Assembly (NCBI RefSeq): GCF_054482525.1
Contig: NZ_CM137006.1
Reading direction: 5' to 3' (one strand)
DNA length: 64,000 nt
In this document: positions 28,558 through 28,591 of the stretch, one piece after another
Layout: each line of letters begins with the position of its first letter
Position numbering within the stretch: position 1 is the first letter of the stretch
Program-made: the position numbers and the translations under genes
Notes under the pieces: generated by a model
The model's database searches: none
Seen by the model: only the letters and a program-made list of their open reading frames with translations
Told to the model about the DNA's origin: nothing

Positions 28558-28591
28558 AGGATACACTCTGGAGTCGACTCCAGAGTCAAGT
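28558..28591 (-). promoter_or_regulatory. zntA promoter with ZntR (MerR-family) operator
   Basis: On the reverse strand: TTGACT, then a 20 bp spacer containing the palindrome ctctggagtcgactccagag, then TATCCT; the long spacer with dyad is the MerR-type architecture, about 10-40 bp upstream of the zntA start. Confidence 0.75.

Follow-up and report, generated by a model that had tools for sequence, protein, structure and literature searches.

The ZntR-dependent promoter of zntA in a non-K-12 Escherichia coli and a predicted fold-back hairpin over the zntA ribosome-binding site

Results

Gene context and promoter anatomy

The window analysed, a stretch of 64,000 nucleotides from E. coli contig NZ_CM137006.1 (RefSeq assembly GCF_054482525.1), carries yhhN and zntA in tandem on the minus strand, with the zntA promoter (PzntA) between them (Table 1). 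The zntA product is identified as ZntA by NF033775 (1444 bits; cut-off 1240). The TGA stop codon of yhhN (28598–28596) is separated by 6 nt from the -35 hexamer, and no canonical terminator was found between yhhN and the -35. Read on the minus strand, the order is ...ctc tga taaaac TTGACT ctggagtcgactccagagtg TATCCT tcggttaatgagaaaaaacttaaccggaggatgcc ATG, with 35 nt from the -10 hexamer to the zntA start codon.

Table 1 Features at the yhhN-zntA junction, in window coordinates and in order of transcription.
Feature	Position	Strand	Basis or remark
yhhN CDS, 208 aa	28596..29222	-	Upstream neighbour of PzntA
-35 hexamer of PzntA, TTGACT	28584..28589	-	Recount; equals published TTGACt-(20)-TATccT
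ZntR operator, perfect 22-bp palindrome ACTCTGGAGTCGACTCCAGAGT	28565..28586	strandless	Equals published ZntR consensus
Spacer, 20 bp, CTGGAGTCGACTCCAGAGTG	28564..28583	-	Exact recount
5' arm of predicted fold-back stem, GTATCCTTCGGTTAA	28550..28564	-	RNA folding; includes -10 hexamer
-10 hexamer, TATCCT	28558..28563	-	Recount; equals published site
Transcription start site (TSS) of zntA-only mRNA	28551..28552	-	SMRT-Cappable-seq, mapped via K-12 alignment
3' arm of predicted fold-back stem, TTAACCGGAGGATGC	28524..28538	-	RNA folding; includes Shine-Dalgarno
Shine-Dalgarno of zntA, GGAGG	28528..28532	-	Sequence reading; 5 nt between its end and ATG
zntA CDS, 732 aa, Zn/Cd/Pb-exporting P-type ATPase	26324..28522	-	
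Half-site copy in zntA codons 1-5, GTCGACTCCTGAC (also ATGTCGACTCCTGAC)	28508..28520	-	11/13 copy of operator right half-site GTCGACTCCAGAG

An earlier note on this DNA had placed TTGACT and TATCCT 20 bp apart and had made its reading depend on a spacer of 19–20 bp; recounted exactly on the minus strand, it is 20 bp. The range assigned to the promoter in that note (28558–28591) does cover it, with two surplus nucleotides at the upstream end, and the dyad described in the spacer is real, although the 20-nt version quoted starts with two bases of the -35 hexamer (ct). The orientation is corrected here: the promoter reads on the minus strand, as does zntA.

The operator dyad is a gapless inverted repeat (11+11, 100% complementary by repeat finder) that takes in the final 3 nt of the -35 hexamer and leaves 2 nt free before the -10. 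No other perfect palindrome in the window is as long (the runner-up has 14 bp); by chance, ~0.015 perfect palindromes of 22 bp would be expected per 64 kb, and 100 shuffles of the window gave no match to the dyad with up to three mismatches allowed. These figures bear on the possibility of a fortuitous palindrome, for example one made up of SalI- and HinfI-type restriction sites, beside equally fortuitous hexamers. The dyad does include GTCGAC and GAGTC/GACTC, but given its length and rarity the probability of this explanation is negligible. A standard sigma-70 scan (16–18 bp spacers) did not pick up PzntA, which is to be expected with a 20-bp spacer. Elsewhere in the window, on the plus strand (37,423–37,454), a second arrangement, TTGACT-N20-TATCAT, has one mismatch to the PzntA hexamer pattern and a spacer free of any dyad; with 0.11 such matches expected per window, it is probably due to chance.

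The partial copy of the right half-site that overlaps the first five zntA codons is also seen in Enterobacter, Kluyvera and Citrobacter (10–13 of 13 positions; null frequency of a match at 9/13 or better, 0.0008). Third-codon positions differ between these genera, so the constraint may act on the protein (MSTPD/E) rather than on the DNA.

Identity with the known E. coli site

Between yhhN and zntA, the whole intergenic region is base-for-base that of K-12 MG1655, and the K-12 PzntA/ZntR operator agrees with it in the hexamers, the 20-bp spacer, the 22-bp dyad and the gene downstream; one coding difference was found in 181 aligned nt, outside a promoter free of differences. The strain is nevertheless a non-K-12 E. 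coli, with 100% identity over 401 bp to strains such as ST2747 and PCN033. This 401-bp query has matches, annotated yhhN/zntA, in 5425/5426 complete E. coli genomes. A 78-nt stretch spanning the 73-nt intergenic region is identical in 5367 of the 5425, whereas the surrounding 401 bp are ≥99% identical in only 1401. Such invariance, together with exact spacing across genera (see below), is sequence evidence by which a chance origin of the site is already refuted.

The earlier note had called this a known regulatory site, and so it is: the supplementary table of Permina et al. (PMC1526738) gives E. coli zntA as TTGACt-(20)-TATccT, and the dyad equals the ZntR palindrome consensus published there. 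Hobman et al. 2012 (PMC3431237) describe spacers of 19 bp for MerR-family promoters, with that of the ZntR promoter as the 20-bp exception, while PMC9189660 states a PzntA spacer of 19 bp. The latter figure is not supported by our data, since both the recount and the cross-species spacing favour 20 bp.

Conservation of the 20-bp architecture

When 100,044 species genomes were scanned with TTGACTCTGGAGTNNNCTCCA, in which only the -35 hexamer and the left part of the operator are fixed, at least 120 loci were obtained, and the counts that follow are among the 120 matches listed. TAnnnT lies exactly 20 bp after TTGACT in 107/120, compared with 3/120 at 19 bp and 0–4 of 120 at each of the other spacings between 14 and 26 bp, and the -10 position holds 35 different hexamers. 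By blastx against ZntA and ZntR, 80 of the 120 listed loci precede a ZntA-like ATPase, almost all in Enterobacterales, while at 31 in other phyla a MerR-family gene 32–47% identical to ZntR lies within 1.5 kb downstream. In a separate tally among the matches listed, TAnnnT was found at 20 bp in 75/77 ZntA loci and in 32/43 other loci. Because selection of the loci was by pattern and many of them are orthologues, the conserved spacing is corroboration and not an independent statistic. With that qualification, the conserved spacing in the sequences compared is 20 bp and not the 19 bp of PMC9189660.

A -35 plus operator of the same form, TTGACTCTGGAGT-N3-CTCCA, in most cases followed by TAnnnT after 20 bp, is also present in Acidobacteria, Gemmatimonadetes, Nitrospirae, alpha-, beta- and gamma-proteobacteria and a Brachyspira MAG (L003, L026, L036–L038, L043, L044, L065, L068, L072, L073, L101, L107, L111, L115, L116 and others). 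This box usually lies immediately 5' of a MerR-family gene 32–47% identical to ZntR, which suggests autoregulation. At six loci from several alpha- and beta-proteobacteria (L025, L030, L046, L051, L069 and L081) the box precedes an orf of ~87 aa (MAKRKIEIFSAGC...), putatively thioredoxin-like as read from its sequence alone, with a merR-like gene next; L025 and L030 have a second, related box (TTGACCCTGGAGCCGGCTCCAGGGTGTA...) between this orf and the merR-like gene.

E. coli differs from the loci with an adjacent MerR-family gene in that zntR is unlinked to the operator: tblastn found no zntR in the window, and in K-12 the gene is ~167 kb from zntA. It is present in 5425/5426 complete E. coli genomes (a species-level count), the same number as the promoter. 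Footprinting and DNA distortion at PzntA were reportedly described for ZntR by Brocklehurst et al. and Outten et al., both in 1999. Published experiments on the promoter reportedly include DNase I and KMnO4 footprints of ZntR, in vitro transcription in the presence and absence of Zn(II), and deletions in the spacer. The palindrome could in principle be the operator of another MerR-family regulator (e.g. CueR or SoxR) or of an unrelated palindrome-binding protein, as the whole MerR family combines a long spacer with a dyad at its centre and the -35 plus half-operator also precedes the ZntR relatives of other phyla. Against this, the sequence is that of the K-12 site with its published ZntR dependence, zntR and the promoter have the same near-universal distribution in E. 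coli, and CueR-type sites in the same published dataset (PMC1526738) have another core, of the CCTTCC-(5)-GGAAGG type. Control by a regulator other than ZntR is thus extremely improbable.

Transcription start and read-through from yhhN

SMRT-Cappable-seq (Supplementary Data 1, PMC6131387) places a forward-strand TSS at NC_000913.3 position 3606421 (184 reads), from which a transcript covering b3469 only extends to 3608685. This position corresponds to 28552 in the window if the table is 1-based, or to 28551 (an A) if 0-based, i.e. 30 or 29 nt before the ATG, respectively. The start falls 6–7 nt past TATCCT, confirming the assignment of the -10 hexamer, and the operator centre, between 28575 and 28576, is at about -24 relative to it. 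A search of the Cappable-seq supplements (PMC4782308) for zntA or its coordinates gave no matches.

The same SMRT-Cappable-seq dataset (PMC6131387) includes yhhN-zntA co-transcripts (b3468/b3469) and rsmD-yhhL-yhhN transcripts (b3465/b3466/b3468), and a Y. pestis transcriptome paper handles yhhN-zntA as a single unit. These transcripts bear on a different reading of the palindrome, as being, with the hairpin that follows it, mainly the terminator of yhhN, the promoter-like spacing being incidental. The dyad starts 9 nt past the yhhN stop codon. In the yhhN-zntA read-through RNA, for which two hairpins are predicted (-42.7 kcal/mol, z = -6.6), it is predicted to form a 9-bp GC-rich hairpin, with one of 15 bp behind it, and the b3465/b3466/b3468 transcripts include yhhN and not all of zntA, so some 3' ends lie downstream of yhhN. 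However, on the transcribed minus strand there is no U-tract behind either hairpin, so the combination of GC-rich hairpin and U-tract typical of an intrinsic terminator is absent there. The only T-run is on the plus strand, the one strand on which the terminator scan flags the palindrome and where no gene converges. Full-length yhhN-zntA co-transcripts also exist, the dyad is the published ZntR site, and it is found at the exact 20-bp promoter spacing in loci that have no yhhN upstream, such as those of Serratia, Budvicia and Edwardsiella. A primarily terminating role is accordingly very improbable, and the palindrome is treated below as the ZntR operator.

The plus-strand call itself (28,565–28,596) comprises the ZntR palindrome plus CAAGTTTTAT, antisense to zntA, and its T-run pairs with the A-tract (ATAAAAC) immediately 5' of the -35 hexamer. 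It is probably incidental, as no plus-strand gene converges on it.

A predicted hairpin between the -10 region and the Shine-Dalgarno sequence

The second hairpin of the read-through RNA is a predicted 15-bp stem, GUAUCCUUCGGUUAA / UUAACCGGAGGAUGC, pairing the -10 hexamer and discriminator (28564–28550) with the Shine-Dalgarno region (28538–28524; z = -4.7). Its 5' arm lies almost wholly upstream of the PzntA start; since the TSS is at the 3' end of this arm, the stem is possible only in RNA reading through from yhhN. In RNA beginning at the mapped TSS the 5' arm is missing, and no significant structure is predicted (z = 0.1). The predicted probability that the E. coli Shine-Dalgarno sequence is unpaired is correspondingly 0.00 in read-through RNA and 0.47 in RNA from the TSS.

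This is the layout expected of a fold-back inhibitor, in which the 5' arm precedes the TSS of the gene concerned and the 3' arm overlies the ribosome-binding site, and transcripts entering from upstream, which such a device requires, exist (b3468/b3469, PMC6131387). No Rfam family was detected between 26,000 and 31,000 of the window at E ≤ 1, and no description of a zntA Shine-Dalgarno hairpin was found in the literature searched.

The hairpin across Enterobacterales

Seventy-two distinct enterobacterial leaders were folded one by one and grouped by yhhN context. Where the yhhN stop codon is within 30 nt of the -35 hexamer (n = 41), the median hairpin z is -5.0 and the Shine-Dalgarno sequence is predicted to be unpaired with a probability of 0.07 in read-through RNA and 0.49 in RNA from the TSS; with no yhhN within 1.5 kb (n = 12), the median z is -0.3 and these probabilities are 0.55 and 0.61. 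Where yhhN is 60–190 nt away, the intergenic region tends to have a hairpin of its own 5' of the -35. The hairpin thus follows adjacency of yhhN, but the yhhN-context groups also follow phylogeny.

In 33 of the 41 cases with adjacent yhhN, folding is better for the sense than for the antisense strand (p = 1e-5), and the stems include 45 G-U pairs. This asymmetry and the G-U pairs favour a structure acting at the RNA level over a DNA or protein-binding one. Individual compensatory changes were seen, with T[ATCCT]...[AGGAT] in E. coli, TA[ACCT]...[AGGT] in L089 and TA[AGCT]TCCGG...CCGGA[AGCT] in L109, and the stem arms of L053 have paired indels. For 32 enterobacterial leaders aligned with MAFFT, RNAalifold found no more than a weak consensus of 6 pairs, because indels in the arms misalign them.

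A hexamer-swap test placed the -10 hexamer in the stem only in lineages with TATCCT and a few others, and pairing between the -10 and the Shine-Dalgarno sequence was therefore not retained as a general rule. In Pantoea and Photorhabdus the hairpin stops before the Shine-Dalgarno sequence.

Most Enterobacteriaceae leaders have a longer inverted repeat, TTAATGA-N8-TCATTAA, while the leader of E. coli and E. albertii is 3 nt shorter (GAGAAAAAAC loop; 28,539–28,549) and has lost the TGA/TCA part of the stem. The TAATGA-N8-TCATTA repeat was considered as a Zur or Fur box and rejected: its spacing, compared by eye with the consensus sequences, is unlike that of those boxes, the strand asymmetry with G-U pairs fits RNA, and the E. 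coli repeat is partly lost.

Discussion

The feature between yhhN and zntA is, with near certainty, PzntA, the sigma-70 promoter of zntA under the MerR-family metalloregulator ZntR. The earlier note had proposed just such a promoter, and identity with K-12, the published ZntR site, ZntA encoded downstream, the position of the TSS and the conserved spacing all support it; none of the results speaks against it. Promoter anatomy, K-12 identity, downstream gene and conserved spacing were obtained here and the TSS through published data, while the literature is the source for binding by ZntR, the response to metals and the mechanism of DNA distortion. The site is already known, and is a textbook case of activation by DNA distortion.

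In the published mechanism, with spacer distortion summarised in a review (PMC9909328), the 20-bp spacer would exceed the productive span of RNA polymerase by ~3 bp and misalign the -35 and -10 hexamers for sigma-70, so that basal activity would be very low; activity of PzntA without ZntR is indeed very low in reporters (PMC9189660). A ZntR dimer would sit on the 22-bp palindrome that fills the spacer, keeping the promoter off or slightly repressed when metal-free. ZntR bound to Zn(II), Cd(II) or Pb(II) would then kink and underwind the centre of the operator, bringing the hexamers to a usable distance and phase for RNA polymerase to form an open complex. Transcription would start from 28551/28552 and ZntA would be produced. 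In reporters, the zinc-dependent switch goes from repression of up to ~2-fold to activation of ~10-fold over a zntR knockout (PMC9189660). For ZntR the PDB has only residues 43–141 (C-terminal fragment; 1Q08, 1Q09, 1Q0A) and no complex with DNA, so the structural picture leans on the homologues CueR, CadR and MerR; complexes with DNA and RNA polymerase are available for CueR and other homologues.

PmerT/MerR (Tn501, Tn21), PcopA/CueR and PpbrA/PbrR likewise have an over-long spacer with a central dyad, and their regulators also sit between the -35 and -10 hexamers and activate by distorting DNA. PmerT and PpbrA share the -35 TTGACT with PzntA (PMC3431237). All three differ from PzntA in having 19-bp spacers and different, often imperfect dyads, as opposed to 20 bp and a perfect 11+11 dyad. 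PzntA is widely used in biosensors for zinc, cadmium and lead, and what its confirmation here adds is only clean cross-species evidence for the 20-bp spacing.

The hairpin, unlike PzntA itself, may be new. The best, though tentative, reading of the folding predictions, to which we give appreciably less than even weight, is that it is a conserved fold-back inhibitor of translation of read-through zntA transcripts. Because yhhN ends 6 nt before the -35 hexamer without a terminator, RNA polymerase would run on into zntA. Only the resulting long RNAs would carry the -10/discriminator arm, and pairing of this arm with the Shine-Dalgarno region would silence their translation, whereas RNA started under ZntR control would lack the arm and be translatable. 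The -10 element would then double as an anti-Shine-Dalgarno sequence, and ZntA output would stay dependent on the ZntR switch despite constitutive transcription from upstream. Alternatively, the hairpin may be a stabiliser of the 5' end or a weak terminator. If translation of read-through RNA is inhibited in this way, it would explain how an efflux promoter under tight control copes with a co-oriented gene whose end lies 6 nt upstream. Reporter clones of PzntA would also be concerned, as upstream transcription and the presence or absence of the 5' arm could alter their output.

The closest parallel is fold-back inhibition in IS10/Tn10, reportedly described by Davis, Simons and Kleckner in 1985 and said to protect the element from external promoters. 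As in IS10/Tn10, the ribosome-binding site has its complement in sequence 5' of the TSS of the gene itself, and only transcripts from outside can form the occluding stem, which for zntA is a prediction. Unlike in IS10/Tn10, the gene concerned is a chromosomal metal-efflux gene and not a transposase, and the 5' arm is supplied by the promoter itself, from its -10 hexamer and discriminator.
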